A DNA stretch of 64,000 nucleotides from Myxococcota bacterium (GTDB lineage Bacteria > Myxococcota_A > UBA9160 > UBA4427). Location of the stretch: contig JAQWRT010000010.1 of assembly GCA_029243605.1 (NCBI GenBank), positions 64,175 to 128,174 on the forward strand. Reading direction: 5' to 3'. Shown here one piece after another: positions 35,679 through 57,347 of this stretch. Numbering within the stretch: position 1 is the first letter of the stretch; the number at the start of each line of letters is the position of its first letter. The position numbers and the translations under genes are program-made. The notes beneath the pieces are model-generated. The model saw only the letters and a program-made list of their open reading frames with translations. It searched no databases and was not told the origin of the DNA.

Positions 35679-35812
35679 CGAAGTTTCCGGTATTTCTCTA
35701 GGGGGTTCTCTAAGAGGGGAAGGGTGCGCCCGACGCACGGGAGACTAGCATTACACTTCGGTCCCATAATGCCTTGACTGTTGGAGAAAACTGGCTTTGC
35801 TAGGGTTTTTTC

Positions 35813-38933: not shown

Positions 38934-39145
38934 CGGGTGAGCCTATCCGAGGCGCCGGATGAGTGCTATTCGGCCCCGGCCGGCTTCCCGAGTACGCAAA
39001 TCCTCACCGAAAACTTCGTTTTTGGCTGAAATTTTCGAAAGGAGTACGTTCTTTCTGCTCTTGCCCGGCAGGTTGCCTTCCGATACCGAGGAGGAGCGCG
39101 GCATTGCCCGCGACCACTCGATCCGCCCACGTCCGAGGAGTGCAG

Positions 39146-39896: not shown

Positions 39897-41027
39897 TTGA
39901 ATAATCTCGCCGACCGGCCGTGCAGAGTATTGCTCCTGAACGAACGGGACCCTCTCCATCCCAAAACCGGTGGGGCCGAAACTCACGTCTACGAGATTTT
40001 TGAGCGCCTGACCCAGCGCGGATACTCGGTCACCCACTTCAGTTCATCTTTCCCCGGGTCCCCAGAAAAAGAGCGCCATCAGGGAATCGAAATTCGTAGG
40101 CTCGGGGGGCTCCCTGTTTACTATCCCCGAGTGCTTTGGGAGACCGCGCGTGAAACCCGGAAGGGCAACTTCGATCTCGTCGTGGAATGCCTGAACAAGG
40201 TTCCCTTTTACTCACCCGCCTACTCGTCTGTTCCCGTCCTCGCCCTATGCCATCACCTCTTCGGCGAAGTCGCTTTCCAGCAAGTGCCTTGGCCCATCGC
40301 GGCTACCGTATGGGCTTCTGAACGCTTGATCCCTCCGCTCTACCGCTCGAGGCCCTTTCTGGCAATTTCGGAAAGCACCCGGCGCGACCTGATCGGCCGA
40401 GGCCTCCCCCCTTCGCATATCCGCGTGAGCCAGCCGGGCATTGCGCCGCCCACCCTCGAAGTCGATCCCAGTCCAAACCAGGGCCAGGGCGTCATCTATG
40501 TCGGACGACTCGAGGTCTACAAGAAAATCGACGTTATGCTCAGGGCCATGGCGAAGCTCTCCGACACTTTCCCCCAAGCGCCCATCGTCATTGTGGGTCG
40601 TGGGCCCGCGCGGTCCGGTCTTGAATCTCTTGCCCAGGAGTTGGGGATCTCTGATCGCACCCGGTTTACGGGCTTCGTCGAGGACTCGGAACGCGACCGA
40701 CTCCTCTCCGAAGCGCGTGTCTGCGTCTGCCCCTCCGAAAAAGAGGGCTGGGGCCTGACCGTGATGGAATCGTGCGCGGTGGGCACGCCGGTGGTGGCCA
40801 CGAATGCCGATGGGTTGCGGGACTCGGTGCGCGATGGCGAAACCGGTTATCTGGTCGAGGAAGGTGATGTCGACGGCTTTGCAGCGCGCATCGGCCAACT
40901 CCTCGAGGACGATGCTCTCGCGGGCAGGATGGCTTCCCAGGCCATCGCCTGGGCAAAGCATTTTGATTGGGACCGCGCCGCGGATGATATGGCGGGCGCC
41001 ATTGAGGAAGCCCGAGGAAGGCCATGA
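39897..41027 (+). CDS. family 4 (GT-B) glycosyltransferase
   Basis: 376 aa. The C-terminal half has the GT4 E-x7-E region (PSEKEGWGLTVMESCAVGTPVVATNADGLRDSVRDGETGYLV). TTG start, uncertain. Confidence 0.85.
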   Translation: MNNLADRPCRVLLLNERDPLHPKTGGAETHVYEIFERLTQRGYSVTHFSSSFPGSPEKERHQGIEIRRLGGLPVYYPRVLWETARETRKGNFDLVVECLNKVPFYSPAYSSVPVLALCHHLFGEVAFQQVPWPIAATVWASERLIPPLYRSRPFLAISESTRRDLIGRGLPPSHIRVSQPGIAPPTLEVDPSPNQGQGVIYVGRLEVYKKIDVMLRAMAKLSDTFPQAPIVIVGRGPARSGLESLAQELGISDRTRFTGFVEDSERDRLLSEARVCVCPSEKEGWGLTVMESCAVGTPVVATNADGLRDSVRDGETGYLVEEGDVDGFAARIGQLLEDDALAGRMASQAIAWAKHFDWDRAADDMAGAIEEARGRP

Positions 41028-41109: not shown

Positions 41110-42036
41110 ATGAAATTCCTCCGATGGTCCATCCCTTTCCTGATCAGCGCACTCCTCCTCGCGTGGGTATTTCAGGGCATGGAATGGGGCGAACTTCGGG
41201 ACAAGCTGACTTTCGAAACGGTTCAAGTATTCGGACCGGCACTCATCGCATTTCTTGCGGTGAGTCTCCTGATCGAAGCCGTCTGCCTGGTGGATGTCGT
41301 ATCCCATAGCCATCACATGCCGAGTCTTCTGGTGGCAGCGCGTATCAAGGCCGCCAGTTACCCCTTGGGCATTCTCAACTATGCCCTGGGAATCGGTGCG
41401 GTCACCCTCCTGCTTCGCCGACGGGTGGGCATGTCCCTGCAAGAAGCGGCTGGAGCTGTAGGCGTCATCGGTCTCTTCGATCTCGGAAGCTTGATCGCGA
41501 TCATCGCCGTGGGCGCAGCCCTGATGGGCGCCGAAACTCCGGGGGTTCAGGCCGGTGTCCTGGCCGCAGTTGCGGCGGCCATCGGCATCGGTTTCGCCAC
41601 ACTGCGAGCTCCATTCTCCCTGGGCTGGATCGATCGCCTGCGCGATCTACCGATTTTGCATGCCGCGCGAACCCTGCCCCTCTCGGTTCTGGTCCGACTT
41701 GCCTGCCTGCGATTGATTTTCACCGGCAATTTCATCGCCCTGGGCTGGGCGGTTCTAGCGGGCTTCGGCGTCGATGGGATCCCCCTTCTCTCCCTGGCGG
41801 TCAATATTTCCGTTCTCCTAATCGTCGCCGCGCTGCCCATTGCCGCAGCTGGCCTGGGCACAGGTCAATGGGTATTCGTCGAGCTCTTCAAACCCTGGGC
41901 CGATCCCGCGACGCTTCTTGCCGCCAGCCTGACTCTCTCCCTCGGGCTGATCGTCACCCGGGCGGCCATCGGCCTGGTCTTCGCCCGAGAGTTCACCGCC
42001 GAAGCTCTAGCTGCCCAAAAAGAGGAGGAAGCGTGA
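41110..42036 (+). CDS. UPF0104 / LPG-synthase-TM-like 'flippase-like' polytopic membrane protein
   Basis: 308 aa from ATG 41110 (MKFLRWSIPFLISALLLAWVF...), with about 8 hydrophobic helices. Size and pattern fit the PF03706-type family often found beside GT2/GT4 genes. The track ORF from 40804 overlaps the GT4 gene. Confidence 0.5.
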   Translation: MKFLRWSIPFLISALLLAWVFQGMEWGELRDKLTFETVQVFGPALIAFLAVSLLIEAVCLVDVVSHSHHMPSLLVAARIKAASYPLGILNYALGIGAVTLLLRRRVGMSLQEAAGAVGVIGLFDLGSLIAIIAVGAALMGAETPGVQAGVLAAVAAAIGIGFATLRAPFSLGWIDRLRDLPILHAARTLPLSVLVRLACLRLIFTGNFIALGWAVLAGFGVDGIPLLSLAVNISVLLIVAALPIAAAGLGTGQWVFVELFKPWADPATLLAASLTLSLGLIVTRAAIGLVFAREFTAEALAAQKEEEA

Positions 42037-44425: not shown

Positions 44426-46105
44426 ATGGCGGAAACCTCCAGGTCTGAAAGCAGCGAAAAGCCCGACGACCCCTCCAGCGCCTGGGGCGGGATGACGCTC
44501 CTCGCCGGGCTGGCGATCCTTGCCCAACTCCCCCTCTATGACCGCAGCCTGGTCCCTATGGACGAGGGCCACCTGCTCGCCGCCAGCGATGCCCTGGCCG
44601 CGGGGAAACGTCTCTATGCAGACATCCACACGGGCATCTTTCCCGGAATCTACTGGGTCGCCGCCGCGCTCCTCGAATGGCTCGGGCGCGACGCTCTGGT
44701 TCTTCGAGGCGCCGCACTCGTGACCAATAGCGTCACAGCGCTTGCCCTCTACGCGATCGGGCGGCGCATGGTGGCGCCCTATTGGGCCTGGCTCCCGCCC
44801 CTTCTCTATCTGGCCCTCATCGTCGTTTCCTTCCCCGTACTCTCCATGTTCAATTATTCGACCCTCGCGGTGGCCCTGGGCCTGCTGGCGCTTCTCTTTC
44901 TGCTCCGATACCTCGAACGCGGACGCGCCTGGGAGGGCGTCGTTCTAGGACTCTTGATCGCCGCCGCCGCCCTGACGAAACAGAATTTCGGCGGTTTGAT
45001 TTTCGTCGCCCTGCTGATCGCCTTCGTCCTGGCTCGGCGAGACTCGGCCCTCGCCGGCAAGGGCCTTCTTTCGGGGCTTCTCCCCGTCGTCGCCGGAGGC
45101 CTAGGGTTGACCCTGGCTGCGTTTCTAGCGTTATGGATGCCAGGGGCGTTCCCCGCATTCCTCGATCGAACGATTTTCTCTCTCTTCGGATCGCAACTCC
45201 AGGACTTCAACAATCCGATTCCTCCCATTTTCGGCGCCCACCCGGCGGAGGACGGTCGCTTCGTCTTCCTCTACACGCCGCCGACTGTCTTCAACGCCCT
45301 GGTTCACGGCCAACCCTACGCGGGCTTCTCGCTAACCCCGCTCCTGCGCTCGCTTTCAATCCGGCTCAGCTACGGAATTCCTCTCGCGGCACTCATCCTG
45401 GCACCGGCCCTCTTCTTCTTTACGCGCCACTGGGGTGTAAAGGCCGCCCGCAACGCCGCACGCTCCGCTGTCATCTTCGCCGTCGTCTTTTCACCGGGAA
45501 TCTTCCCCTCGGCGATTTGGTCCCATCTGGCGTTCGTCTTGATCCCCATCCTGCTCCTCTTTGCTTTCCTCGGTGATCGCGTCGAAAAGATCTTGCAGCG
45601 GCGTCGGGTCGCGGCCGGTCTCTGGCGAATTCTTGCCGGGGTACTCACCGCAATCGCCCTCATCATCGCCACCAGAACCGCACTCTCGGTTATGGACTTC
45701 TACCCCGAGCCCCTCGGACTTGAACGCGCTTCCCTCCACGTCTCAGCCCGAGATGCCGACCTCCTGAGCGGAGCCGTACGATTTATCCAGGAATGCAGCG
45801 AGCCGGGTCAGCCCGTACTCATCCTGCCGGATATCCCCGCGCTTTATTTTCTCGCCGACCGGCCCAACCCCTCGCCCTTCGATCTGGCGATTCCCGGAAA
45901 CGTCGATGGCCCGCTGATCGCCCGGCAGGCCGAGGCGGCCCAAGTTCGATGCGCGGTGCTCAACCCTCGCATGTACCCAGAATTTCCTCCCTTTGAGCAG
46001 CTTTTCCCCCAGCTCTCAGCGCATCTCGAAAGCGAGTTCCGAATCGTCCGGGAAATCCGAGGCGGAAACTCCCTCTGGTTGGGGCTGGTCCGTAGATCCC
46101 GCTGA
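44426..46105 (+). CDS. GT-C-fold (PMT/ArnT-like) polytopic membrane glycosyltransferase candidate, paralog A
   Basis: 559 aa with a Shine-Dalgarno AAAGGGAG upstream. The first loop motif is LVPMDEGHLL, followed by G-x2-LY-x-D...PG and KQNFGG. There are more than 10 TM helices and a C-terminal periplasmic module shared with paralogs B and C. Confidence 0.6.
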   Translation: MAETSRSESSEKPDDPSSAWGGMTLLAGLAILAQLPLYDRSLVPMDEGHLLAASDALAAGKRLYADIHTGIFPGIYWVAAALLEWLGRDALVLRGAALVTNSVTALALYAIGRRMVAPYWAWLPPLLYLALIVVSFPVLSMFNYSTLAVALGLLALLFLLRYLERGRAWEGVVLGLLIAAAALTKQNFGGLIFVALLIAFVLARRDSALAGKGLLSGLLPVVAGGLGLTLAAFLALWMPGAFPAFLDRTIFSLFGSQLQDFNNPIPPIFGAHPAEDGRFVFLYTPPTVFNALVHGQPYAGFSLTPLLRSLSIRLSYGIPLAALILAPALFFFTRHWGVKAARNAARSAVIFAVVFSPGIFPSAIWSHLAFVLIPILLLFAFLGDRVEKILQRRRVAAGLWRILAGVLTAIALIIATRTALSVMDFYPEPLGLERASLHVSARDADLLSGAVRFIQECSEPGQPVLILPDIPALYFLADRPNPSPFDLAIPGNVDGPLIARQAEAAQVRCAVLNPRMYPEFPPFEQLFPQLSAHLESEFRIVREIRGGNSLWLGLVRRSR

Positions 46106-46162
46106 AAACCCGTATCTCCAGCGGATCTTGTAGCGCCGGGGAGTCGCTCATATACTCGGGCT

Positions 46163-48331
46163 GTGCGGGACCTTCTACGGCAACTGGGAATCTTGGAGCG
46201 ACCCGCCTGGCTCTATCTCGCCATTGCCGGATTGGCTCTGGCTTTTGGTTGGCCGCTCTGCCAGCGGGCGATCATCCTCTCCGATGAGGGCTACCTCCTT
46301 CAGCAAGCCCTCGACCTCCTCGAGGGCCGGGTGCTCTACCGCGACATGGATGCCTTCATCACCCCGGGCATCTGGTTCACTCTGGCCGGTGTCTTCGCTG
46401 TCTTTGGCCCGAGTGTTCTGGTCTCCCGAGTCGTAATCCTCATCGTCTATCTGGCCCTGGCTCTCACGGGCTACCGAATCGTCACTCCCATCGCCGGAAG
46501 GAAGTGGGGGCTGGCGAGCGTGGCCTGCCTCCTGCTCTTCTCCGTCTGGGCTTTTCCGGCCTGGACCTTCGCCTTCTATTCACCGGTGGCCGTGGTGCTC
46601 GCCCTCGCAGGAATCGAACGTCTGATGCGCTGGCAACGCCGCCGCGCCATCGGCGACCTCGCATGGATGGGTGCGCTCATCGGCTTGTCGATCTGCTTCA
46701 AGCAGAACTACGGGGTCTTCGCCGCCCTGGCGGCGATCCTGGGCTACGCGGCCACTCACCTCGAAGCAAAGGACTGGCGAGGGAGCGCGCGGGAGGTCGG
46801 CGTGGCTTCGCTTGCGGCCATCGCGGTGGGCTCTCCCTTCCTCCTCTACCTGATCACCCAGGGCGCCCTGGGCGATGCCTGGACGAGCCTTGTTGTTCAC
46901 CCCTTCGAATTCGGGGGACGGCACGATATTCCCTACCTGGGAATCTCGACTCTCTGGCAGGCGGATCCCTTTCAGACCGGAGCCGAGAAGCTCACCTACC
47001 TGTCTTTTCCCGCGCTCAATACCGCCCCGCTTCCGCTACCGGGTGGCCAGGGTCTGGTCATCTGGCTCCATGTGCTGGCCTACTGGATCGCCCCCCTGAT
47101 GATTTCCGGAGGCTTTCTCGTCGCCTTGGCCTCTGGGAGAGCGCGCGGTGGGCGCATTGATCCTGGGCTCTTCACCATCAACGCCGCCGCCGGACTCATC
47201 TTTCTCGGTGTTTTTCCCCGGGCGGATTTCAACCACCTCGTCAACGTTTACCAACCGATCCTCATCGCCGGCCCCCTGACCCTCCAGCGTCTTTTTGAAT
47301 TGCTCCGGGGGCGTGCTGACCGCTTGCGGCGTGTCCTCGCCACGGTCGCGGCCCTCACCGCGATTCTCTATGGAGCCATCGCACTCTTCTGGTATGTGGG
47401 CCTGATCCAGCGATTGAGCGTCCCCCTGGAACAACCCCGGGCCGGGGTTCTGGTCAGCCCACTCGAAGCCCTGGAGATCAATTACCAGGTGCGACTGATT
47501 CGCGACCACACGCCCGAGGGGGGAGCCCTGCTGACCCTGCCAGATCTCACCATGTTGAATTTTCTCGCCGAACGCGAAGTCCCCAGCGCCTGGTACAACC
47601 TCTACGAGCACCATATCGCGAACGATCGTGGCCGAGGCGTCGCTGAGGCCGCCGAAGAAAAGAACGTTCGCTACGCCGTGGCGCGCTTCAACAATTTCTT
47701 TTCCGACCGGGTTGGTCTGCTCGATTACGCCCCCGATCTTGCCGACTACTTGATCTCGAATTTCGAAAGGAGTTTCGTCGGCGGACGCGAAAACTATATC
47801 GTCTACACCCGACGCGATGAGCCCGAGGTGCAGCACCCCTATATCGATTTATTGGCGAGTTGCGATGTCGAAGACCCGGGAGAGGAAATCCGCAAACATC
47901 TGCTCTTCTCCGCCCTCTATCACAAGGGGCGGAAGGGTTCGCCCATGACCGAGGAAGGCCTAGTCACTCGCTGCCAGGTTCAGGTACCCGAAGGTGGAGG
48001 CGTACTCGCCCTGGAAGTCGGCTACCGGAAACCTTTCCGGTCGGATCGGGGTACACGACTCGATATTTCCATCGATCTCGTGGACGAAAAAAGTCGCCAG
48101 CCGATCCTCGAAGAACGACTTCCCGTCATCCCCTGGCAGGATTCTCCGCGACAGCAAGCCTTCAAGCGCTTCGAGATCGACCTCGAACCCTGGGCGGGAA
48201 GAACGGTCGACCTCGAGTTTGCAACCCACTTGCAAGGGACAATCCAGGATTCGGTCTTGGACCTCAAAGGCTTCGCAATGATCTACCGCGATCCACGACT
48301 TCAAACGAAGGCCGGCGGAGCGCGACCATGA
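46163..48331 (+). CDS. GT-C-fold (PMT/ArnT-like) polytopic membrane glycosyltransferase candidate, paralog B, with extra beta-rich C-terminal domain
   Basis: 722 aa with a GTG start. Motifs are IILSDEGYLL, GRVLYRDMDAFITPG and FKQNYGV. The C-terminal extension ends ...FEIDLEPWAGRTVDLEF..., similar to paralog C. Confidence 0.6.
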   Translation: MRDLLRQLGILERPAWLYLAIAGLALAFGWPLCQRAIILSDEGYLLQQALDLLEGRVLYRDMDAFITPGIWFTLAGVFAVFGPSVLVSRVVILIVYLALALTGYRIVTPIAGRKWGLASVACLLLFSVWAFPAWTFAFYSPVAVVLALAGIERLMRWQRRRAIGDLAWMGALIGLSICFKQNYGVFAALAAILGYAATHLEAKDWRGSAREVGVASLAAIAVGSPFLLYLITQGALGDAWTSLVVHPFEFGGRHDIPYLGISTLWQADPFQTGAEKLTYLSFPALNTAPLPLPGGQGLVIWLHVLAYWIAPLMISGGFLVALASGRARGGRIDPGLFTINAAAGLIFLGVFPRADFNHLVNVYQPILIAGPLTLQRLFELLRGRADRLRRVLATVAALTAILYGAIALFWYVGLIQRLSVPLEQPRAGVLVSPLEALEINYQVRLIRDHTPEGGALLTLPDLTMLNFLAEREVPSAWYNLYEHHIANDRGRGVAEAAEEKNVRYAVARFNNFFSDRVGLLDYAPDLADYLISNFERSFVGGRENYIVYTRRDEPEVQHPYIDLLASCDVEDPGEEIRKHLLFSALYHKGRKGSPMTEEGLVTRCQVQVPEGGGVLALEVGYRKPFRSDRGTRLDISIDLVDEKSRQPILEERLPVIPWQDSPRQQAFKRFEIDLEPWAGRTVDLEFATHLQGTIQDSVLDLKGFAMIYRDPRLQTKAGGARP

Positions 48332-49827
48332 GCGGCAAAGCCGAAGGAGGCTCTGCGGATTCGGACCCCAACACGGCCGAGTTTATCGGGTTCGAATACC
48401 ATTCCGACGAGCGCGTGAGCCCCGCTCGATATCGCTGGGAGGGCTCGTCCACCCGGGGTTGGCAGATCCAGCGCGAGGGTGCTCACCACCTCGACCTGGG
48501 TCCGGGCTTTCGGCCCCTGCGGTCCCACCGATGCGGGGTGTGCTCCACCGACCTCGATCGCCGTTTTCTCCCCTTCCCCCTCCCCCAAATCATCGGTCAC
48601 GAGGTCATCGCCCTCGACCAAGTATCCCGGCGCCATGTTGTCGAGATCAACGCCTCCCACGAGGCCCGAGGAATCGAACACGCCTGCCCGTTCTGCCTGG
48701 GAGGCCTGGCGACCCATTGCCCCGAGCGGCGGGTGCTAGGGATTCACGATCTTCCCGGCGGCTTTGGCCCCTGGGTACTGGCCCCGGAGGCCGCGATCAT
48801 TCCCCTCCCCGACTCGATTAGCGACGATGCCGCCGTACTCATCGAACCCTTCGCGGCGGCCCTTCATGCCGCCGAGTCTATCGCTCCCTCGGCCGGGGAA
48901 AGAGTCGCCGTCCTGGGGCCGCGACGCCTGGGGTTGCTCGTCATCGCAGCTCTCGCCGCGCTACGCAAACGCGACGGAACCGACTACAAAATTCTGGGTT
49001 TGGTGCGCCGCCCGAGTATGGCCGACTGGGCACTCCGTTTCGGCGCCGACGAAGTTCTCCAGGCGCCGGACCCCGGGTCCGCGGCCGAGCCCTGTGCGGA
49101 ATTCGTCATCGACACAACGGGAAATCCCCTAGGACTCGAAACCGCTCTGATGGCTTCCGGGCGCGAGGTTCACCTGAAATCGACCCACGGCCAACCCTCC
49201 GCGGGGCTTCGGCACACCACCGAGTTGGTGGTCGATGAGCTCACCCTCCAAGCCTGGCCCGAAGATCCCGACGAGGCCAAAGCCGTGGTGCGCGACTCGC
49301 CCTGCCGCCCAGACGATCGCCCCCGAGTGGCCTGGCTCGCCAGTACGCCGCCGCCGGCATGGCTGAGCGACCGGGCGGATGTGTGGGCGGGGAAGGATCC
49401 GAACGCATTATTGAAGGCCCTTGAAGACCAACCATCCGGGCTGCCCCGGGCCGACCTCGCGGTGGTGGACGACGAAGCCGGCATCGATGCCGTGGTGCGA
49501 CCCCGGGAAGACGAGGAAATTTCCCTGGTTCGCCCAAGGGGCCAGATTTGCACCCGAGCCGGTGGAGCGCGCACGGGGCCCCTCCTCCATGCCCTTCACC
49601 AGCGCAAGCTTCGACTGAGTACCTCGCGCTGCGGAGATTTTGAGAAAGCTCTGGCGCTGCTCGTCGCCGACGACGAGCTCGCTCAGCGCCTGCCCGCACT
49701 CATCACCCATCGCGTACCCGCCACTCGGCTACCCGAAGCGCTGGCTCTGGCGCGCACGCCGGAATGCATCAAAGTCGTGATCGAACACGCCGAGACGCAA
49801 TCGCTGCCCGGGACCCAGGCGGACTAA
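48328..49827 (+). CDS. zinc-type medium-chain dehydrogenase/reductase (MDR/ADH) family protein with N- and C-terminal extensions
   Basis: ATG 48328 overlaps the GT-C B stop (ATGA). Catalytic-zinc ligand context: HRCGVCSTD...GHEVIA. Structural-zinc Cys cluster: CPFCLGGLATHC. Rossmann segment: RVAVLGPRRLGLLVIAALAA. About 150 aa of unassigned C-terminal sequence follow. The track ORF from 47860 is over-extended. Confidence 0.7.
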   Translation: MSGKAEGGSADSDPNTAEFIGFEYHSDERVSPARYRWEGSSTRGWQIQREGAHHLDLGPGFRPLRSHRCGVCSTDLDRRFLPFPLPQIIGHEVIALDQVSRRHVVEINASHEARGIEHACPFCLGGLATHCPERRVLGIHDLPGGFGPWVLAPEAAIIPLPDSISDDAAVLIEPFAAALHAAESIAPSAGERVAVLGPRRLGLLVIAALAALRKRDGTDYKILGLVRRPSMADWALRFGADEVLQAPDPGSAAEPCAEFVIDTTGNPLGLETALMASGREVHLKSTHGQPSAGLRHTTELVVDELTLQAWPEDPDEAKAVVRDSPCRPDDRPRVAWLASTPPPAWLSDRADVWAGKDPNALLKALEDQPSGLPRADLAVVDDEAGIDAVVRPREDEEISLVRPRGQICTRAGGARTGPLLHALHQRKLRLSTSRCGDFEKALALLVADDELAQRLPALITHRVPATRLPEALALARTPECIKVVIEHAETQSLPGTQAD

Positions 49828-49846
49828 AGGGTCGGCTCTTCGAGCC

Positions 49847-50617
49847 CTAGTCCCCGCCTTCGGGCCCGCGCTCTTGGCCCAATCCGGGCAGCTTCGGCGG
49901 CCGAAAGGCTGTGAGCAGGACGTACCAGGCCGCCAGATAGATCTCTGCGCCTTCGATCTTCGAAACCCCTGCAACGCGCTGCTCGAAGATGATCGGGACC
50001 TCTCCGATCGAAAAACCATAGCGGGTGACTCGCCAGGCCATCTCCTCGAGGAACGAATAGCCCGAGGAACGAATCTCAAAAGGGTGCACCGTTTCGAGAA
50101 CTTTCCGCCGGTATCCGCGATAGCCCGCCGTGCAGTCGTGAACGTCGACCCTCAGCAGCGTCCGGGCATAAAAGTTGGCGAATTTCGAGAGCAAACGCCG
50201 ATGCCAGGGCCAATTCTCGATTCCGCCGCCGGGAACATAACGAGAGCCGACGACCATATCCCGATCATCGAGCAGGGCGATGAGCGCCGGCAGGTATTTC
50301 GGGTTGTGGCTGAAATCGCAATCCATGGTGAAGATGAAATGGAAACCTCGATCCAAACCGAACCGGAAGCCACTGAGGTAGGCCGTACCCAGACCCAGCT
50401 TGCCTGGTCGCCGGAGGAGGTGGAGCCGGGGCTCGGTCTCCTGGGCGCGTTCGACGAGATCACCAGTTCCATCCGGGCTGTTGTCATCGACGACGAGGAC
50501 TTCGATTCGAGGATCTTCTGCCAAAACCAGCCCGGAGAGTTCGACGACATTGCCAGCCTCGTTATAGGCAGGCAGGATCACCAGGATGCGCTCCTCGGAG
50601 GTGCTCTCGGAACTCAC
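49847..50617 (-). CDS. polyprenol-monophosphate hexose synthase (Dpm1/Ppm1-like GT2), copy 2
   Basis: 256 aa. ILVILPAYNEAGNV...LVVDDNSPDGTGDLV...RRPGKLGLGTAY...TMDCDFSHNP is collinear with copy 1 and clearly paralogous to it. Confidence 0.85.
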   Translation of the reverse strand: MSSESTSEERILVILPAYNEAGNVVELSGLVLAEDPRIEVLVVDDNSPDGTGDLVERAQETEPRLHLLRRPGKLGLGTAYLSGFRFGLDRGFHFIFTMDCDFSHNPKYLPALIALLDDRDMVVGSRYVPGGGIENWPWHRRLLSKFANFYARTLLRVDVHDCTAGYRGYRRKVLETVHPFEIRSSGYSFLEEMAWRVTRYGFSIGEVPIIFEQRVAGVSKIEGAEIYLAAWYVLLTAFRPPKLPGLGQERGPEGGD

Positions 50618-50732
50618 TGGCGATTCCCTCGGCTCATCGGACGACTCCCAGGCTCAGATCCCTCATTTTTCACTCTCCCAGGATACCCACTGGCGACCCT
50701 CGGCGACAAATTTCCAATCACCGCCAAGGGAG

Positions 50733-51620
50733 TCAAGCCGCTCGAGCGATGACGAAAAGGCGATTCTCTCGCCCGAGAAGTTTGCCCGCCAGGAACATGG
50801 ACTGAAGGCCAAGCCGCACCAGGGGGTGAAGGGTGAGCCTGCGCAAGTCCGTCGATTCCTGCTCGAGTTGGACGACCTCCAGGCCACCCAATGCGAGACA
50901 ATCTCGGAGGCTGTCGGGAGTGAAATAGAGGAAATGCTGCTCGATATAAAATTTCTCGAGGGGCGCGGTCAATCGGCCCCCGGACAAGCGATACATCGCC
51001 CCGCCCACTAGGTCCAGAATGCTTCGCTGGTTCGGCGTCGAGAAACTGACGAGGCCGCCCGGCGCCAGGCATTCTCGGGCCGCCCTCACCAGACTGGCCG
51101 GCGAGCGTGAGTGCTCGATGACGTCCCAGCCCGTGACGAGGTCGAAGCTCTCACCCATATCGGTCAGAGATTCGAACTCACCCACCCAGGGGTCGAGACC
51201 GAAATGTCGCCGAGCGTGGTCGGTGGCTTCGATGCTCTCATCGATTCCGTAGGGCTCCCAACCTCGCCGCCGAGCCACCGCCAGGAAGAGACCCGTTCCG
51301 CATCCCACGTCGAGCAAGCGACCCGGAGCCTTGACGCGCTCGATGATATCGAGCCAGGCCTCGAACTGTTCCACCAGGGGGTTTCCGGGTTCGTCTTCAA
51401 AGCAGAAGCCGTAATAATCTTTGAGCTCGGGGACCGACCCTTCGCCGCTGGTGTAGAGCGATTTGAAGAGTTCCTGGATCTCCTCCTCGCTGGGGAGCGG
51501 ATCCAGGAAGATCTGCCCACACGGTCCGCACTCGACAACGTCGAAACGCGTGATGCGATACCGCAGACCGATTTCCTCGGATCCGCAGATCAGGCACGAA
51601 GTTTTGGAGGGATCCGACAC
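50733..51620 (-). CDS. class I SAM-dependent methyltransferase with N-terminal Cys4 zinc-ribbon
   Basis: 295 aa. CLICGS...ECGPCGQIFLDPLP is followed by motif I LLDVGCGTGLFLAVA and DVIEHSRSP. Confidence 0.85.
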   Translation of the reverse strand: MSDPSKTSCLICGSEEIGLRYRITRFDVVECGPCGQIFLDPLPSEEEIQELFKSLYTSGEGSVPELKDYYGFCFEDEPGNPLVEQFEAWLDIIERVKAPGRLLDVGCGTGLFLAVARRRGWEPYGIDESIEATDHARRHFGLDPWVGEFESLTDMGESFDLVTGWDVIEHSRSPASLVRAARECLAPGGLVSFSTPNQRSILDLVGGAMYRLSGGRLTAPLEKFYIEQHFLYFTPDSLRDCLALGGLEVVQLEQESTDLRRLTLHPLVRLGLQSMFLAGKLLGRENRLFVIARAA

Positions 51621-51671
51621 GGAGTCGATACTGCCACAACGAGCCCGGGGAGGGAAATTCAGTCGGGCCCT

Positions 51672-53945
51672 TCAGGGCTGTTCGGAACCCGGGGACTCTG
51701 GAAATCCAGGAGGGACCAGGCGCGGCTCGGCCCATCCCCCCATGAGCAGGTCCTCGCCATCGGGGTTGTCCGCCCGGTTACTCAACTCCAGGGTGATCTC
51801 CTTGCCCGCCCAGGCCCCGAGATCGAGATCGAGATCGAACCAGCGCCGATCCTCGATGCGGTTCGTGGTGTTGAGCCGACGCTCGTAGAGAGTTTCGAGA
51901 CCTTCCGGGGTCCGTACCGAGAGCCGGAAGTCCACCCATGAAGCGGGCAATTTGAACCATCGCTGGGGATGGACCGCGACGGCCGTCACCAAGCGCCCAC
52001 CCTCCCGAGGTACTTTCAGTGGAAGCCCGAGAACGGTGCTGCGATTTCCCGAGGAGGGTCTCAAGGCAATCGCTGGACGGAAGGGCCAGAGCATCTCCCT
52101 CAGATAGAGACCGCGGGATTCCGGGGGAATCACCCTGGAGGGTCCGAAGGTCTCGTCGATTCGAAGAGGGGCCGCAGAGAGACCCGCCGGCGCGATGGGC
52201 CGGCCCGGGCTCTGTTCCTCGGGTGAGCGACGGCGAAGCGCCGCCGGCTTGTACCCCCAGGTGTCGTAACTGAAGATTCGGTCGATCTCGAAATTTTCGA
52301 CCAGGTAGGCGAAGAGCTCCGGAGCATGTTCCCAAAAGGGATCGAAAGTCTGGAACTGGGTAAAATTGTAGAGCACCACGTCGGTACCCGTTTCCTCCAT
52401 GGCCCTCGCTACCGCCGCGTCGCGATCGGGAATCTCGGGAAAGGGCCAGATAATATAAGCCGAGCGGTGAGGCCCTCGGCGCTCGGACAGGAAATTCGCA
52501 ATGGGGAAATACGGAATCCCCCCCAAAGAATCTTCCGGGTCGGTATTCGCCTCGACGTACTCGAGAACGCTCTCGAGCATGGCCACCTCCCCGGGCTTGC
52601 CATAGATCCCCGCCCGGGGATGATCGATCAGGACCGAGTGAGAATCCCTCAGCCGCATCACCAGATGCCCGGAATAGACCACCGCCAGGGATACGGGGAT
52701 CAGTGCCAAGGCCACGGCTGCACGACCTCGCCCGCGCCGACCTCCAACCCATCCCTCCAAGGCAAAAATCACCAAACCCAAGAGCGGCCAGTAGAGCACC
52801 GCCAGATGGATATAGTCCTGGGGTTTATTGAGCCACGCGAGCAGGACCAGGCTCGTCCCCAGAGCGAAGAAAAGGAACTCCACCAGATAACGAAGCCTGC
52901 CCGGATCGCCTGTCGGTGCAGCCAGCCTACGCCTCTGGCGCCAGAGTCGAAAAGCGAAACCGGCGAGGAGGGCTTGGGGGCCGTAGAAGAAAAGCTTGAG
53001 CATGATGTCGTAGAGCGGGGTGTCGGTGTAGAGCGGATGGATCCGCAACGCCGCCCAGTCGGCAGTCAGCATGATTCCCGGCATAGTTTCGGTGATGCCC
53101 AGTTGAGTACGCAGGGCAAGATCTTGGCTGAAGATCGGCCATAGGTCGGGGAAATCGGAATAAGGGTAGGCGCCTATCCCCTTAAAATGGTTGAACACGG
53201 TGAACTGAAGAACGTCATCGAGGACACCTACGCTCCAGTAGTAGAGGCCCGTCGCCGCACCCACCGCCGCTGCCGGAACGATAAAGGTCGCCAAGGTCGA
53301 GAAGCTCGAAGGCCGGCGATCACTCGGGCGGGAAGATTCGTAAAGCGCCAGGGAAGCCAGAAATGCGAGCAGCGCGGCGGCGCCGTAATCCTGTTTGCAA
53401 AAAACCCCAAGTCCAAAGAGCAGGCCTGAAAAAGCCAGAACCCGGCGATCCGAGCGCTCGAAATATACAACCAGAGCTGTGGCGCTAGCGAGGAGAACGA
53501 CCAGGGCCAGGGTCGAGTAGCTGTAGATCTGCCAGTGCGGGAAGCACCAGATTCGGTAGAGCCAGAAAGAACCGAGGGCCGCGAGGGCCCATGGAAGCGA
53601 AGTCACCTTGCGAAAAAGGAAAAAGAGAAGCGTCGCGAAAGCGGCGAACTCCACGATCACCACCCAACGGGACACCCGGATGGACGCGCCTAAGACGTCG
53701 AAGACCAGCGCAAGAAAATGGAAGGCGCCCGGAAGCGGATAGAATGTGGCGTCCCGGTAGAACTCCCCGCCCCTCAGTCGGAGGTCGGCGAATTGCAGGA
53801 CATGCCCCTCGTCCATGAGGCTGAACCACAGGTCGAAGAAGGGGACTTGAAAAAGAATTGTGACGCCGAAAACCAGCCCCAAGGCGAGGCTCGTGCGAGA
53901 CATCATCCCACCTACAGCCTGTGGTCCATCGGGTTGCACATCCAA
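51672..53945 (-). CDS. GT-C-fold (PMT/ArnT-like) polytopic membrane glycosyltransferase candidate, paralog C, with extra beta-rich C-terminal domain
   Basis: 757 aa. Motifs are FSLMDEGHVL, GGEFYRDATFYPLPG and CKQDYGA. The C-terminal extension ends ...FDLDLDLGAWAGKEITLEL... An alternative start about 13 codons downstream (MMSRTS) is possible. Confidence 0.6.
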   Translation of the reverse strand: MDVQPDGPQAVGGMMSRTSLALGLVFGVTILFQVPFFDLWFSLMDEGHVLQFADLRLRGGEFYRDATFYPLPGAFHFLALVFDVLGASIRVSRWVVIVEFAAFATLLFFLFRKVTSLPWALAALGSFWLYRIWCFPHWQIYSYSTLALVVLLASATALVVYFERSDRRVLAFSGLLFGLGVFCKQDYGAAALLAFLASLALYESSRPSDRRPSSFSTLATFIVPAAAVGAATGLYYWSVGVLDDVLQFTVFNHFKGIGAYPYSDFPDLWPIFSQDLALRTQLGITETMPGIMLTADWAALRIHPLYTDTPLYDIMLKLFFYGPQALLAGFAFRLWRQRRRLAAPTGDPGRLRYLVEFLFFALGTSLVLLAWLNKPQDYIHLAVLYWPLLGLVIFALEGWVGGRRGRGRAAVALALIPVSLAVVYSGHLVMRLRDSHSVLIDHPRAGIYGKPGEVAMLESVLEYVEANTDPEDSLGGIPYFPIANFLSERRGPHRSAYIIWPFPEIPDRDAAVARAMEETGTDVVLYNFTQFQTFDPFWEHAPELFAYLVENFEIDRIFSYDTWGYKPAALRRRSPEEQSPGRPIAPAGLSAAPLRIDETFGPSRVIPPESRGLYLREMLWPFRPAIALRPSSGNRSTVLGLPLKVPREGGRLVTAVAVHPQRWFKLPASWVDFRLSVRTPEGLETLYERRLNTTNRIEDRRWFDLDLDLGAWAGKEITLELSNRADNPDGEDLLMGGWAEPRLVPPGFPESPGSEQP

Positions 53946-54074: not shown

Positions 54075-54926
54075 ATGACCCGCCCGGCCCTTAGCCTTGA
54101 TTTGCGTACCCTGCTGCTCTTGGCTGCCCAGTGGACCCTCTTCCTCGGGAATTTCGTGCTCTTTGCGGCCGATACCCTACCCCTTTGGGCCCATATGCTC
54201 ATCACGCTCGTAGTCGTCCACCTCGCCTTTACGATCTGGCACGAAGCCGCCCACGGCACAATCTCGAATCGACGTGGGCTCAACAATGCGGCGGGGATCC
54301 TCGGGATGCTTCCCTACACCACGCCGTATTTCATGCAGCGGCACGTGCACCTTCAACACCATAAATACCTCAACGAGCCGGGTCTCGATCCGAACCTCAT
54401 CTATGCGGACGGACCTTTCTGGCAGCTCCTTTTCCGTTACCTGAAAGCCGTCTCCTACCTCAGGTCGGTGCTCAGGGACGACCCCCGTTCGCTGAGGATG
54501 CGAGCCTCTGACACTTTTTTCGTGGCCCTGGTCGCGGGGGCCTACCTCTTCGCGTTGTCACAGGGTTTCCTGCTGGATCTGATCCTGATCTGGTTCGTTC
54601 CCCTGGTGGGCGCGAAGATCATTATGGACTGGTATATCAACTATCTCCCGCATGTCGGCCTGCCCTCCGACCGCTTTCTGGGAACGCGGATCATCACCGC
54701 CCGATGGCTGACGCCTCTCGTACTGAGCCACAACTACCATGCAGTCCACCATCTCTGGCCCACGATTCCGTGGCACGGCTACATCGCGCGCTTCCGCGCA
54801 AAGCAGGACTACCTTGTGGCGAACGGCGTCCCCATCGAGAGTCGTCTTTTCGGCCCACGCCTTTTACCCGAAGGCGGAGCTACTTCCCAGCACGACCCGC
54901 CGAACGAAGTCACTTCGGGTGGTTAA
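54075..54926 (+). CDS. membrane fatty-acid-desaturase/hydroxylase superfamily protein (three His boxes)
   Basis: 283 aa with His boxes HEAAH, HLQHH and HAVHH in the canonical order and TM helices between them. Confidence 0.8.
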   Translation: MTRPALSLDLRTLLLLAAQWTLFLGNFVLFAADTLPLWAHMLITLVVVHLAFTIWHEAAHGTISNRRGLNNAAGILGMLPYTTPYFMQRHVHLQHHKYLNEPGLDPNLIYADGPFWQLLFRYLKAVSYLRSVLRDDPRSLRMRASDTFFVALVAGAYLFALSQGFLLDLILIWFVPLVGAKIIMDWYINYLPHVGLPSDRFLGTRIITARWLTPLVLSHNYHAVHHLWPTIPWHGYIARFRAKQDYLVANGVPIESRLFGPRLLPEGGATSQHDPPNEVTSGG

Positions 54927-55878
54927 GCCCGGCTCCCTCGAACTCGAGAGGGTCCGCTGTGCCCTCTGCGGATCCGAACGCTCGGAGACTTCGGCGACCG
55001 GGGAAGATTTCGAGTACGAAACCTCCGACGACACCTTTCATTTCGTGCGCTGCCTGGACTGCGATCACCAATACCTCGATCCGCGGCCAGCGACATCCGC
55101 CCTGGATACGATCTATCCCTCCGACTACTACTCGTTCGTGGGAACGACGAATCCCCTGGTGGCCCTTCTTCAGCGCTTCTGGGAAGGCGGAAAGGTTCGG
55201 CTCTACGGCGGATTCGTAGGTCAAGGCGAGCGAAACCTCCTCGATGTCGGCTGCGGCGACGGCCGATTCCTCTCACTTCTCGAGCGACAAGGGGATCCTC
55301 AGTGGAACCCCGTGGGCCTCGAATTCGACGAGGGGGCCGTAGCGAGTTGTCGAGCGAAGGGGTACGAGGCCCATTGCGAACGAATCGAAGACTTCGCCCA
55401 GCGCCCTGATCAGAAAAATCGCTTCGACGCCATCCTCATGCTCCAACTCCTCGAACACGTCGACGATCCCGCCCGGGTGTGTGAGCACGTTCATACACTT
55501 CTCAAGCCGGGGGGGGCCTTCATCGTCGAAACCCCAAACCTCGGCGGGCTCGACTACCGGCTATTCGCCGGGCGTTGGTGGGGCCACTACCATTTTCCCC
55601 GACACTGGAATCTGTTCCGGCTTGCCTCCCTTTCGCAACTCCTCGCATCGAAAGGCTTTGAGATCGACCGCGCCGAATATCTCATCAGCACCTCCTCCTG
55701 GATCATCTCTCATCGAAATTATTTCAAGGATCGAGGCTGGCCCCGCCCCTGGTGGCGCTTCTTTTCCTACCAGAACCCCCTGCTTCTTGGCCTGGCGGTA
55801 ATCGTCGATCAATTTCGCATTCGCTCAGGCCGGGAGACGAGCAACATGCGCGTCATCGCGCGCAAGCGCGCCCACTGA
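54919..55878 (+). CDS. class I SAM-dependent methyltransferase with N-terminal zinc-ribbon
   Basis: GTG 54919 overlaps the desaturase stop by 8 nt. CALCGS...CLDCDHQYLDPRP is followed by motif I LLDVGCGDGRFLSLL and QLLEHVDDP. It is paralogous to 50733..51620. The track ORF from 54739 is over-extended. Confidence 0.8.
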   Translation: MVKPGSLELERVRCALCGSERSETSATGEDFEYETSDDTFHFVRCLDCDHQYLDPRPATSALDTIYPSDYYSFVGTTNPLVALLQRFWEGGKVRLYGGFVGQGERNLLDVGCGDGRFLSLLERQGDPQWNPVGLEFDEGAVASCRAKGYEAHCERIEDFAQRPDQKNRFDAILMLQLLEHVDDPARVCEHVHTLLKPGGAFIVETPNLGGLDYRLFAGRWWGHYHFPRHWNLFRLASLSQLLASKGFEIDRAEYLISTSSWIISHRNYFKDRGWPRPWWRFFSYQNPLLLGLAVIVDQFRIRSGRETSNMRVIARKRAH

Positions 55879-55964: not shown

Positions 55965-57347
55965 ATGAAGCGCAGTTCATGGATCAGCATGACCAGACCC
56001 AAACGAGAAATCCGGAAGGAACCGGGGTGGCGAAAGCTGGCAATCGCCCTCGCCCTGCTTCCCCTGATCCTCGGAGCCCCGGGCTGCCAACCCGAGTCCG
56101 ACCCGCCCCGGATCTTGATCATCGGCATCGACGGTGCGAGCCCCGAGGTCGCGTTTCCCATGATGAAGGCCGGCCGGCTCCCGCATCTCGCAGAGATTGC
56201 CGCGACCGGGGTTCATGGTCCCCTACGGTCGGTACTCCCGCTCTATTCACCGCGTATCTGGAATACCATCGCGACCGGAGTCAAGCCGAACGTCCACGGA
56301 ATTCCCGCTTTCGTCAAGCCCGCGACCGGAGGGGGCAAGGCGCTCTACTTGAGCAGCGATCGTAAGGTCCCTGCGCTCTGGAATATCCTCTCGGACCGAG
56401 GACGTAGCGTCGGGGTCGTGAACTGGTGGACTACTTTTCCGCCCGAGAAGATCGAAGGCGTCATGGTTTCGGATCATTTTTTTCCCGAACAGATCGACAT
56501 GATCAAAAAAACCTTCGCCGCCGATCGAGCCTCCGAGGGGGCGCTTATCCACCCGCAGTCCTGGACGCCGCGCGCCGAGGAACAGCTCAAGAACCCGGCC
56601 TCCCTAACTGAATTTGAAAATTTCTTCGACGGCGCGGCCGAGTTGCCCCGCTGGGTCAATCGCTCGCTCCTCAGCCAGCAATTTGTCACCGACCAGGAAA
56701 TCACCCAGGTCGCCCTCGCCCTGGATGCGGATCACCACCTCGACGTGATGATGGTCTTCCTGCCCGGCATCGACCGGGTATCCCATTGGCTCTGGGGCAA
56801 TCTCGAAGCCGAGGATCTCTACCCTCCGACCCTGCAGCCCTCACCCGAGGAACGCGCTGGGGGCGCCGAAGCCCTGCGCGCCTACTACGCCTACACCGAT
56901 GCGCTAATCGGCCGTCTGGTCGCGGGCTATGGCCCCGATGACATGGTTTTGGTGATTTCGGACCACGGCTTCGAAGCCGGAGTCAGCTTGATGTTGTTGA
57001 CGGGCGCTCACGACTCCCCCTCGGCTCTTGACGGGGTTCTCTTTGCCCGCGGGCGCGGCATTCCCCGAGGCCAAGCCGCGGGCCCGGTCAATGTCTACGA
57101 GATCGCGCCCTCGGTGCTGACCTTCGCGGGCCTTCCCTCAGCCCTGGACATGCAAGCGGGGCCCGCGAAATTCCTGGCCGATCTCTCGCGACCCGACCCC
57201 GTCGCGAGCTACAACGCGATCGCCATCGAGCGGTACGCCCCCTCGGCCTCGGGCCATGAGGAGGAGATCATCGAGCACCTCCGAGCCCTGGGTTATCTCG
57301 AGGAAAAGGAAGCGCCCGCCCAGGATCAAGAGCAGGCCCCCCCTTGA
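55965..57347 (+). CDS. alkaline-phosphatase-superfamily phosphodiesterase / nucleotide pyrophosphatase-like protein (probable lipoprotein)
   Basis: 460 aa with leader ...LLPLILGAPGC. The metal/nucleophile region reads ILIIGIDGASPE...LPLYSPRIWNTIATG, with VISDHGFE near the C-terminus, as in PF01663-type enzymes. Confidence 0.8.
   Translation: MKRSSWISMTRPKREIRKEPGWRKLAIALALLPLILGAPGCQPESDPPRILIIGIDGASPEVAFPMMKAGRLPHLAEIAATGVHGPLRSVLPLYSPRIWNTIATGVKPNVHGIPAFVKPATGGGKALYLSSDRKVPALWNILSDRGRSVGVVNWWTTFPPEKIEGVMVSDHFFPEQIDMIKKTFAADRASEGALIHPQSWTPRAEEQLKNPASLTEFENFFDGAAELPRWVNRSLLSQQFVTDQEITQVALALDADHHLDVMMVFLPGIDRVSHWLWGNLEAEDLYPPTLQPSPEERAGGAEALRAYYAYTDALIGRLVAGYGPDDMVLVISDHGFEAGVSLMLLTGAHDSPSALDGVLFARGRGIPRGQAAGPVNVYEIAPSVLTFAGLPSALDMQAGPAKFLADLSRPDPVASYNAIAIERYAPSASGHEEEIIEHLRALGYLEEKEAPAQDQEQAPP

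Follow-up and report, generated by a model that had tools for sequence, protein, structure and literature searches.

Three anciently diverged PMT/ArnT-like GT-C proteins encoded in a conserved gene cluster of uncultured Myxococcota, and their probable role in periplasmic glycosylation

The genome of an uncultured Myxococcota bacterium (GenBank assembly GCA_029243605.1, contig JAQWRT010000010.1) carries three genes for membrane proteins whose N-terminal parts contain the same short motifs in the same order. They lie in the 64,000-nucleotide stretch of DNA that was analysed as a whole (contig positions 64,175 to 128,174, forward strand; hereafter, the window), and they raise the question of what such proteins do and what could distinguish three copies in a single locus. 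The original prediction, made from the DNA letters and their translations, described them as paralogous proteins resembling GT-C glycosyltransferases and suggested sequential or linkage-specific transfers. Our computational analysis suggests that the three proteins, named A, B and C, are probably anciently diverged inner-membrane glycosyltransferases of the PMT/ArnT-like GT-C type, which would transfer lipid-linked sugars onto a periplasmic envelope glycan. The genes, with the predicted architecture of their products, are as follows (CBM, carbohydrate-binding module):

44426..46105, plus strand: paralogue A, 559 amino acids, predicted GT-C membrane glycosyltransferase with a small α/β periplasmic module and without a β-sandwich
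46163..48331, plus strand: paralogue B, 722 amino acids, predicted GT-C core at residues 1-417, α/β periplasmic module at about 420-555 and CBM-like β-sandwich at about 556-722
51672..53945, minus strand: paralogue C, 757 amino acids, predicted architecture as in B, with the β-sandwich included at about 51711-52208

The open reading frames (ORFs) were found at these positions, and the motifs first noticed by eye occur in them verbatim: LVPMDEGHLL / GKRLYADIHTGIFPG / LTKQNFGG in A, IILSDEGYLL / GRVLYRDMDAFITPG / CFKQNYGV in B, and FSLMDEGHVL / GGEFYRDATFYPLPG / FCKQDYGA in C. In BLASTP comparisons, A and B were similar in an N-terminal block (2e-15) and a C-terminal block (7e-13), A and C across 574 columns (3e-17), and B and C over their full length (2e-33). 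The homology of the three proteins is far above chance, and their description as paralogous membrane proteins sharing these motifs stands. Of the 221 ORFs in the six reading frames of the window, a hidden Markov model of the three families recovered just A, B and C, without a fourth copy. The span from 44426 to 53945 also holds three unrelated genes, encoding an alcohol dehydrogenase (ADH)-like protein, a GT2 glycosyltransferase and a methyltransferase.

Evidence for the enzyme class comes mainly from predicted structures. AlphaFold2 models of A and B were built with family alignments and compared with the PDB by Foldseek. Both models were of high quality, with a predicted local distance difference test score (pLDDT) of 91.4 and a predicted template modelling score (pTM) of 0.92 for A, and 91.8 and 0.90 for B. 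The best PDB matches of both were exclusively GT-C enzymes (the top 44 for A and the top 34 for B, Foldseek probability 1.00). For A, the lipid A glycosyltransferase ArnT (5f15) ranked first, with an E value of 5e-9, TM-scores of 0.55/0.57 and the whole protein aligned; it was followed by STT3, Emb, AglB, DPY19, PglB, AftA, ALG9/12, Pmt4, AftB, AftD, PimE and PIG-U. For B, STT3 ranked first (2.7e-9), followed by EmbA/B, AglB, ArnT, DPY19, PglB, AftA, ALG9/12 and Pmt4, and the highest target-normalised TM-score was that to ArnT (0.57). The GT-C fold first proposed from the motifs is thus borne out by the models of A and B, and full-length homology to B suggests that C would adopt it too. We are nearly certain that all three are GT-C proteins. 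The rank of STT3 among the matches of B also led to an oligosaccharyltransferase function of the PglB type being considered; this is unlikely, because the locus encodes monophosphate-sugar synthases and a reading of the sequences revealed no WWDYG-type motif.

The models of A and B have the same topology: a first transmembrane helix (TM1), an extracytoplasmic loop 1 (EL1) of about 50 residues with two short helices, ten more long transmembrane helices, of which TM7 and TM8 are joined by a long loop (EL4), and a C-terminal soluble module. When the model helices were mapped onto an alignment of 115 orthologues of A, B and C, lysine and arginine together accounted, within every family, for 18-22% of residues in the predicted cytoplasmic loops vs 5.5-7.1% in those predicted to face the periplasm. 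By the positive-inside rule, this skew supports a topology of 11 transmembrane helices with the N-terminus inside and the C-terminus outside. As originally predicted, the DEG motif would thus be part of the first loop on the extracytoplasmic side, some 8 residues past TM1 (8-12 in the models of A and B).

All columns with at least 85% conservation across the three families mapped to the periplasmic module or to loops on the periplasmic side. In EL1 these are D-E-G, G-x3-Y-x-D and P-G, each at least 85% conserved within every group, and in EL3, at the turn between TM5 and TM6, they form K-Q-[ND]-[FY]-G, conserved to the same degree. Two further conserved segments were absent from the motif list of the original prediction, namely F-P...Y-S in EL2 and H-L..P in EL5, between TM9 and TM10, both reaching at least 85% in all groups. 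EL4 is conserved within each family and not between families. The loop motifs are located as follows:

44561..44569, plus strand: A D46-E47-G48 in EL1, a putative metal ligand or catalytic base that is unchanged across 72 A orthologues
44978..44992, plus strand: A K185-Q-N-F-G189 in EL3, with K185, Q186, N187 and G189 invariant in the 72 A orthologues, the lysine putatively binding the phosphate or sugar of the donor
46283..46291, plus strand: B D41-E42-G43 in EL1, unchanged across 83 B orthologues, where the first helix of loop 1 begins (H41-53; TM1 is 15-33)
46700..46714, plus strand: B K180-Q-N-Y-G184 in EL3, invariant in the 83 B orthologues, between helices 163-179 and 181-202
47216..47236, plus strand: B P352-R-A-D-F-N-H358 in EL5, with P352, R353, A354, D355 and H358 invariant
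53805..53813, minus strand: C D45-E46-G47 in EL1, at least 85% conserved in the C family
53382..53396, minus strand: C K184-Q-D-Y-G188 in EL3, motif present and conserved across families

The histidine of EL5, H358 in B, is conserved as H367 in A and H380 in C. In GT-C structures that have been solved, the aspartate proposed as catalytic comes after TM1 (PMC11127046). A motif map of the GT-C/PMT clan places a strictly conserved DD in EL1, a KET(Q)xxT motif in EL3 whose lysine binds the phosphate of dolichol-phosphate-mannose and has K203 as its ArnT counterpart, a catalytic EL4 of great length from TM7 to TM8, and in EL5 an ERxxY motif that binds phosphate (PMC7801869). By position, the motif of A K185 corresponds to the KET(Q)xxT of TMTC proteins and to ArnT K203, and the segment of B H358 to ERxxY. 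The DEG, KQ[ND] and histidine positions are thus predicted to coincide with those of the motifs for catalysis and phosphate binding in the PMT/ArnT/TMTC clan.

Beyond the membrane core, all three proteins carry the periplasmic module that the original prediction had recognised by two motifs. One of these, of the FLA[DE]R type, is found in A, B and C alike, where FL-x2-R is at least 85% conserved within each group. The other, YL[IV].NFE, is present in B and C and fails in A, which has HLESEFR in a weakly conserved column. Invariant pairs of cysteines in the C-terminal modules, C457/C509 in A and C567/C604 in B, fit an oxidising periplasm. The additional β-rich domain reported for B and C also appears in the model of B, which ends in an all-β, CBM-like sandwich, and C has the same architecture:

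47828..48328, plus strand: C-terminal β-sandwich of B, CBM-like, all-β in the model, with the W-A-G..L motif and C567/C604

The motif W-A-G-[RK]-x-[VI]-x-L described as common to B and C is present, with moderate conservation (W about 0.6, A 0.8-0.9, G 0.9-1.0 and L 0.9). Ranked after the GT-C enzymes, Foldseek matched this domain of B to CBM6 (2cdp, TM-score to target 0.58-0.61), CBM16 and an alginate-binding CBM. The CBM of a GT-C enzyme binds the acceptor polymer in GT136 ORF12 (PMC11127046) and, reportedly, in EmbC (PMC3044687). Together with these precedents, the CBM-like domains of B and C suggest that a glycan is the most likely acceptor.

Assignment to a known family by sequence was less direct. 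A matched two Pfam families of the GT-C clan (CL0111), namely PMT_2 (PF13231; 29.6 bits, above the cut-off of 26.1) and GT87 (PF09594; 25.3 bits, above the cut-off of 25), and a precomputed PF13231 match was present on most A orthologues, most C orthologues and many B orthologues. Among the families that the original prediction had named for profile comparison, PMT_2 and, for A, GT87 were thus recovered, whereas PMT (PF02366), DUF2723 and YfhO, as well as PMT_4TMC and MIR, gave no Pfam match at E<=1 for A, B or C. Pfam also gave no match to Arabinose_trans (PF04602) or TPR, and the NCBIfam scan of the three proteins returned nothing significant.

More than 200 relatives of each paralogue were found, at 40-91% identity. 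All were from metagenome-assembled genomes (MAGs) labelled Myxococcota, Myxococcales or 'Deltaproteobacteria', and their names, where given, were 'glycosyltransferase family 39 protein', 'ArnT family glycosyltransferase' or 'hypothetical protein'. An exact look-up of the B protein of the window gave no record. Orthologues of B were present in 55 loci of GTDB species representatives, all of them MAGs, a few of which are labelled Candidatus Binatia or Thermodesulfobacteriota; the closest of these orthologues is from the MAG of Myxococcota bacterium ANT-51 (90% identity). Loci L011, L015, L018, L019, L026, L034 and L059 have the record titles of 'uncultured Spirochaetaceae/Spirochaetales' MAGs and a cluster syntenic to that of Myxococcota MAGs; these titles are probably taxonomically wrong. 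In the alignment of 115 sequences, identity averaged about 50% within a family vs about 23% between families, and in unrooted neighbour-joining trees A, B and C each formed a clean split in 50/50 bootstraps. The phylogeny thus resolves three clean orthologous groups and suggests that the duplications are old, having taken place before the sampled lineages radiated. The superfamily appears to be further expanded in some genomes: one locus (L003, 2292-3956) encodes a fourth, more divergent paralogue of 554 amino acids, 26% identical to B, and also contains Acyl_transf_3 and SGNH genes.

The genes of A, B and C belong to a gene cluster that is conserved in uncultured Myxococcota and extends over about 21 kb (approximately 38963-60004). 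The other members are as follows:

38963..39862, plus strand: GT2a, polyprenyl-phosphate glycosyltransferase-like protein (Pfam Glycos_transf_2), whose true start may be downstream of 38963
39897..41027, plus strand: GT4 glycosyltransferase, cytoplasmic, candidate for a primer-forming step (Pfam Glycos_transf_1, Glyco_transf_4)
41110..42036, plus strand: LPG_synthase_TM-like membrane protein, candidate flippase of a donor or intermediate linked to lipid (PF03706 at 26.5 bits, cut-off 33.4)
between the LPG_synthase_TM-like gene and A, plus strand: two methyltransferases (family scan)
between these methyltransferases and A, minus strand: PDZ protein (family scan)
48325..49827, plus strand: oxidoreductase resembling ADH and medium-chain dehydrogenases/reductases (ADH_N; weak Tdh and IolM-type NCBIfam matches)
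49847..50617, minus strand: GT2b, second dolichol-phosphate-mannose-synthase-like GT2, on the strand of C and downstream of it (order C, MT3, GT2b)
50733..51620, minus strand: MT3, class I S-adenosylmethionine-dependent methyltransferase (Methyltransf_23, 1e-26) with an N-terminal Cys4 ribbon, syntenic in 15 loci
54075..54926, plus strand: membrane di-iron desaturase/hydroxylase of the fatty-acid-desaturase/CrtR-like type (best NCBIfam match CrtR-like, under cut-off)
54739..55878, plus strand: CMAS/MetW-like methyltransferase, overlapping the desaturase gene
55965..57347, plus strand: secreted enzyme of the alkaline-phosphatase superfamily (PF01663, Phosphodiest; Pfam 1.1e-24)
57344..60004, plus strand: HpnN-like resistance-nodulation-division (RND; HAE3) lipid transporter at the cluster edge (TIGR03480 at 830.9 bits, cut-off 751.85)

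Two of these proteins bear directly on the sugar donor. The best solved homologue of GT2a is the dolichol-phosphate-mannose synthase of P. furiosus (5mlz, 4.6e-31), followed by ArnC and GtrB; that of GT2b is the same enzyme (1.2e-30), followed by ArnC, and its best NCBIfam match, PpgS, is far under the cut-off. Enzymes of this kind supply GT-C transferases with polyprenyl-phosphate sugars, and by these homologues GT2a and GT2b would make lipid-linked sugar donors. A PF03706 domain is on record for orthologues of the LPG_synthase_TM-like protein in L001 and L002, and the gene is syntenic in 17 loci. The GT4 protein had PimA and MshA as its best PDB matches; the generic C-terminal, donor-binding half alone aligned, and no inference of a specifically PimA- or MshA-like function was drawn. 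The start of the ADH-like gene overlaps the stop of B by 7 nucleotides, so that it probably forms one operon with A and B. An initial idea that this gene was specific to the window, suggested by its absence from L001, was abandoned since the wider survey found an ADH-like gene after B in 14 loci.

Further downstream, the desaturase and the CMAS/MetW-like methyltransferase are a pair conserved in L001/L005 and could be a lipid-tail modification unit. The HpnN-like transporter misses the stricter HpnN equivalog model, and no hopanoid biosynthesis family was above cut-off in the scanned genes around it; its substrate may be another envelope lipid. It may also be a mere syntenic neighbour, because housekeeping genes beyond it are syntenic in L005 as well. 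On the other side of the cluster, two minus-strand genes of the window were observed: an ORF of 1010 amino acids (32706-35738) in which a spermine/spermidine-synthase domain is combined with a membrane region resembling MFS_1, and a GspD-type secretin with a weak C-terminal SPOR-domain match (36711-38933), directly upstream of the glycosylation cluster.

Gene order in related genomes links several of these genes to one another. The whole arrangement is syntenic in the 6.25-Mb chromosome of a Myxococcota MAG, with proteins that are just 44-48% identical. The survey of gene context used the 55 GTDB loci with B, of which 45 had enough upstream sequence and 23 were fully flanked. A was directly upstream of B on the same strand in 31/45 loci, with a 4-nucleotide overlap of the two genes in L001, and a dolichol-phosphate-mannose-synthase-like GT2 was encoded at most 10 kb from B in 17/23 fully flanked loci. 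In distant lineages, including the MAGs labelled Candidatus Binatia and Thermodesulfobacteriota, the unit is reduced to GT2-A-B. Across these reduced loci (L049-L052, L041, L026, L058 and L059), A and B are on the same strand throughout, and the GT2 gene shares that strand in L049-L052, L058 and L059 and is on the opposite strand in L026 and L041.

The secreted enzyme of the alkaline-phosphatase superfamily is also tied to B. In three B orthologues (P0075, P0082 and P0095), a PF01663 domain is fused directly past the β-sandwich; it shares 44% identity with the window enzyme and has no counterpart of the signal peptide. In several other loci the enzyme adjoins B (fusions or adjacency were seen among L021, L022, L027, L028, L030, L031, L047 and L056). 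Such a Rosetta-stone link suggests that B and the PF01663 enzyme are functionally connected, perhaps through a coupled step in the periplasm, either phospho-modification or trimming.

Frequent additions in related loci are MBOAT, SGNH/AlgX-like and Acyl_transf_3 genes, a set characteristic of glycan O-acylation, and more GT-C paralogues. One such locus (L002, 15651-22019) encodes, beside the B orthologue, an AMP-binding enzyme, a 79-residue protein, an MBOAT protein, a GT2 and a YfhO-like GT-C; by analogy, this group resembles a Dlt-type acylation system together with a CsbB/YfhO-type glycosylation pair. A CDP-alcohol phosphatidyltransferase similar to phosphatidylinositol synthase, located beside the L001 cluster, was considered as a conserved member. 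It was adjacent in 2/55 loci and absent from the window, and a phosphatidylinositol anchor is thus without support.

Taken together, these data suggest the following scheme. On the cytoplasmic side of the inner membrane, GT2a and GT2b would attach one or two different sugars, taken from nucleotide sugars, to polyprenyl phosphate, and the lipid-linked sugar would be flipped to the periplasm, for which the LPG_synthase_TM-like protein is the candidate flippase. That the donors of A, B and C are made by these neighbouring GT2 enzymes is likely, judging from their homologues and gene order. Each GT-C paralogue would then transfer a sugar, with inversion, to a periplasmic acceptor; the aspartate/glutamate of loop 1 would act as base or metal ligand, the lysine of loop 3 and the histidine of loop 5 (in B, together with the arginine) would hold the donor phosphate, and the CBM-like β-sandwich of B and C would hold the glycan acceptor. 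As acceptor, an envelope glycan anchored by a lipid or polyprenol is the most likely candidate; it would also be methylated and processed by the secreted alkaline-phosphatase-superfamily enzyme, and we lean slightly towards a glycan rather than a protein or lipid A. Since EL4 is conserved within and not between families, A, B and C would differ in acceptor position or linkage, and the sequential or linkage-specific transfers originally suggested are a reasonable inference from these sequences.

Several observations weigh against this interpretation. TM-scores to solved GT-C enzymes are just 0.4-0.57, and B and C are under the PMT_2 cut-off of 26.1 bits (24.0, just short, and 16.5 bits, respectively). 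Searches of PDB sequences with A, B and C singly and with the family profiles of A and B returned nothing relevant and no ArnT, and hhalign comparison with E. coli ArnT was not significant, with a probability of 0.24% for the A profile and 0.35% for the B profile. The CBM matches of the β-sandwich of B are weak (E values of 4e-3 to 2e-2). On the side of the donor, the NCBIfam matches of GT2a and GT2b are all far under their cut-offs and sugar specificity is unreadable from sequence, and no canonical GtrA, SMR or MATE flippase was found in the cluster by the family scan. Finally, every relative stems from an uncultured MAG.

Two established enzyme types offer themselves as alternatives. If A, B and C were protein O-mannosyltransferases (GT39/PMT), they would transfer mannose from polyprenyl-phosphate-mannose to secreted or membrane proteins. 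PMT_2, the sole Pfam match common to all three, is titled 'Dolichyl-phosphate-mannose-protein mannosyltransferase', several orthologues were named 'glycosyltransferase family 39 protein' by NCBI, the models have 11 transmembrane helices as PMTs do, two dolichol-phosphate-mannose-synthase-like GT2 enzymes are encoded nearby, and Pmt4 is among the fold matches. DEG[HY] is also similar to the loop-1 DE-x-H motif of PMTs (Pmt1 D77/E78); such a DE motif, present as DEG[HY] in A, B and C, is common to other clan members and not diagnostic. We nevertheless consider this explanation unlikely: PF02366, PMT_4TMC and MIR were not matched at E<=1, Pmt1/2/4 are low in the fold ranking, where ArnT, STT3 and Emb precede them, and align only in part (E values of 3e-4 to 4e-2), and the CBM-like domain, together with the MBOAT, SGNH/AlgX-like and Acyl_transf_3 genes of related loci, points to a carbohydrate acceptor. 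An ArnT-like function (GT83), in which lipid A or the lipopolysaccharide core is decorated from an undecaprenyl-phosphate donor, appears quite unlikely too, even though ArnT is the best structural match of A and, by target-normalised TM-score, of B. It would be in line with ArnC as the second-best solved homologue of both GT2 enzymes and with the name 'ArnT family' of some orthologues, and the non-significant hhalign alignment of A still pairs VPMDEGHL with WQPDETRY of ArnT and LTK185 with MTK. However, no arnA-, arnB-, arnD-, arnE- or arnF-like gene was found in the Pfam/NCBIfam scan of the cluster, the hhalign probability is below 1%, the models have 11 and not 13 long transmembrane helices, and three paralogues, two of them with CBM-like domains, fit poorly with a single lipid A modification.

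A different kind of alternative concerns catalysis itself. At least one paralogue might be a non-catalytic partner, such as a scaffold or the acceptor-binding subunit of an A-B heterocomplex, a possibility that is suggested by the position of A directly upstream of B in most loci and the overlap of the two genes in L001, and for which the GT-C pairs Pmt1-Pmt2 and EmbA-EmbB, which function as heterodimers, are precedents. We regard it as very improbable, because each of the three families retains DEG, KQ[ND] and the histidine at a conservation of 85% or more, which speaks for an active site under purifying selection in every paralogue. The reading that A, B and C are three active PMT/ArnT-like transferases can also be extended, speculatively, to the whole cluster of about 21 kb (38963-60004). 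By analogy, it might assemble an envelope glycan, lipid-anchored and so far undescribed, in uncultured marine Myxococcota, by a logic parallel to the synthesis of mycobacterial phosphatidylinositol mannoside (PIM)/lipomannan or eukaryotic glycosylphosphatidylinositol (GPI), in which GT4 forms the primer, the two synthases supply donors, the three GT-C proteins extend the glycan with A and B as a heterocomplex, the B-coupled PF01663 enzyme adds or trims a phospho-substituent, and the HpnN-like RND transporter exports the product; this extended scheme as a whole is doubtful.

GT-C enzymes build or decorate lipopolysaccharide modifications, lipoarabinomannan, arabinogalactan and protein glycans, and several are drug or resistance determinants. 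The locus described here would add three GT-C subfamilies tied to two donor synthases, with a GT2-A-B module that reaches MAGs labelled Binatia and Thermodesulfobacteriota. The motif set of DEG (EL1), KQ[ND] (EL3) and histidine (EL5) allows a finer annotation than 'GT39 family protein', and the scheme provides testable hypotheses on envelope glycan synthesis in a lineage without cultured members. The understanding of the mechanism of GT-C enzymes is unchanged by the finding; its more unusual aspects would be the conserved A-B pairing, the fusions or adjacency of B and a phosphodiesterase-type enzyme, and a gene content parallel to that of PIM/lipomannan or GPI assembly. On sequence grounds, A, B and C appear not to be GT39 in the strict sense, demonstrable ArnT orthologues or Emb-type enzymes. 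They are new subfamilies in a well-known enzyme class, for which public annotation is already generic ('GT39/ArnT family').

Comparison with known systems places the three proteins among several relatives. Like ArnT (GT83; C. metallidurans 5ezm/5f15), they have a polytopic core followed by a small α/β periplasmic domain, an acidic residue soon after TM1, a lysine at the periplasmic turn of TM5/TM6 and a GT2 polyprenyl-phosphate glycosyltransferase as partner. Unlike in ArnT, identity is 13-17%, profile similarity is not significant, the long transmembrane helices number 11 rather than 13, there is no arn operon, and the ArnC-like GT2 enzymes resemble dolichol-phosphate-mannose synthase more; the YFEKP motif of ArnT is replaced by G-x3-Y-x-D...PG, and B and C add a β-sandwich. 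With PMT (GT39) and TMTC1-4 they share 11 transmembrane helices, D-[DE] in EL1, the lysine motif of EL3, a long EL4 joining TM7 to TM8, and an EL5 motif that is basic or aromatic (PMC7801869). They differ from these in having no PF02366, MIR or TPR match, a fold closer to ArnT/STT3 and other C-terminal modules.

A GT-C core with an extracytoplasmic CBM-type domain is also found in the mycobacterial arabinosyltransferases EmbA/B/C and AftD and in the GT136 protein ORF12 of Citrobacter youngae, in which this domain binds the glycan acceptor and several paralogues work on one polymer. Emb proteins (GT53), however, have about 1,050-1,090 residues, the fold match to them is significant with TM-scores of just 0.26-0.38, and Arabinose_trans was not matched. 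The cluster is also without genes for decaprenyl-phospho-arabinose or phosphoribose (a UbiA-type synthase and DprE1/E2 were not found by the family scan), and its donor synthases are dolichol-phosphate-mannose-synthase-like. The mycobacterial assembly of PIM, lipomannan and lipoarabinomannan and the eukaryotic assembly of GPI likewise combine a cytoplasmic GT4 (PimA/PIG-A type), a GT2 polyprenyl-phosphate-mannose synthase and several GT-C enzymes with PF01663-type enzymes, acyltransferases (here, in related loci) and an MMPL/RND transporter. GPI ethanolamine-phosphate transferases carry PF01663. This likeness is an analogy of gene content alone, as the GT4 match is generic and no inositol-pathway gene was identified in the cluster.

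A further parallel in organisation is three-component periplasmic glycosylation, in which genes for a GT2 synthase of polyprenyl-phosphate sugars, for a flippase and for a GT-C enzyme occur together (PMC11127046). Like the GtrA/GtrB/Gtr* systems, the locus has a polyprenyl-phosphate sugar synthase beside a GT-C enzyme, and GtrB is among the solved homologues of GT2a. Unlike in these systems, no GtrA/SMR or MATE flippase was found by the family scan, the LPG_synthase_TM-like protein being the sole candidate; the locus is not an O-antigen seroconversion cassette, and it holds three GT-C proteins, two GT2 enzymes, a GT4, four methyltransferases, an alkaline-phosphatase-superfamily enzyme and an RND transporter in about 21 kb. 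By analogy, its overall logic would be that of three-component periplasmic glycosylation, expanded to two synthases and three transferases.

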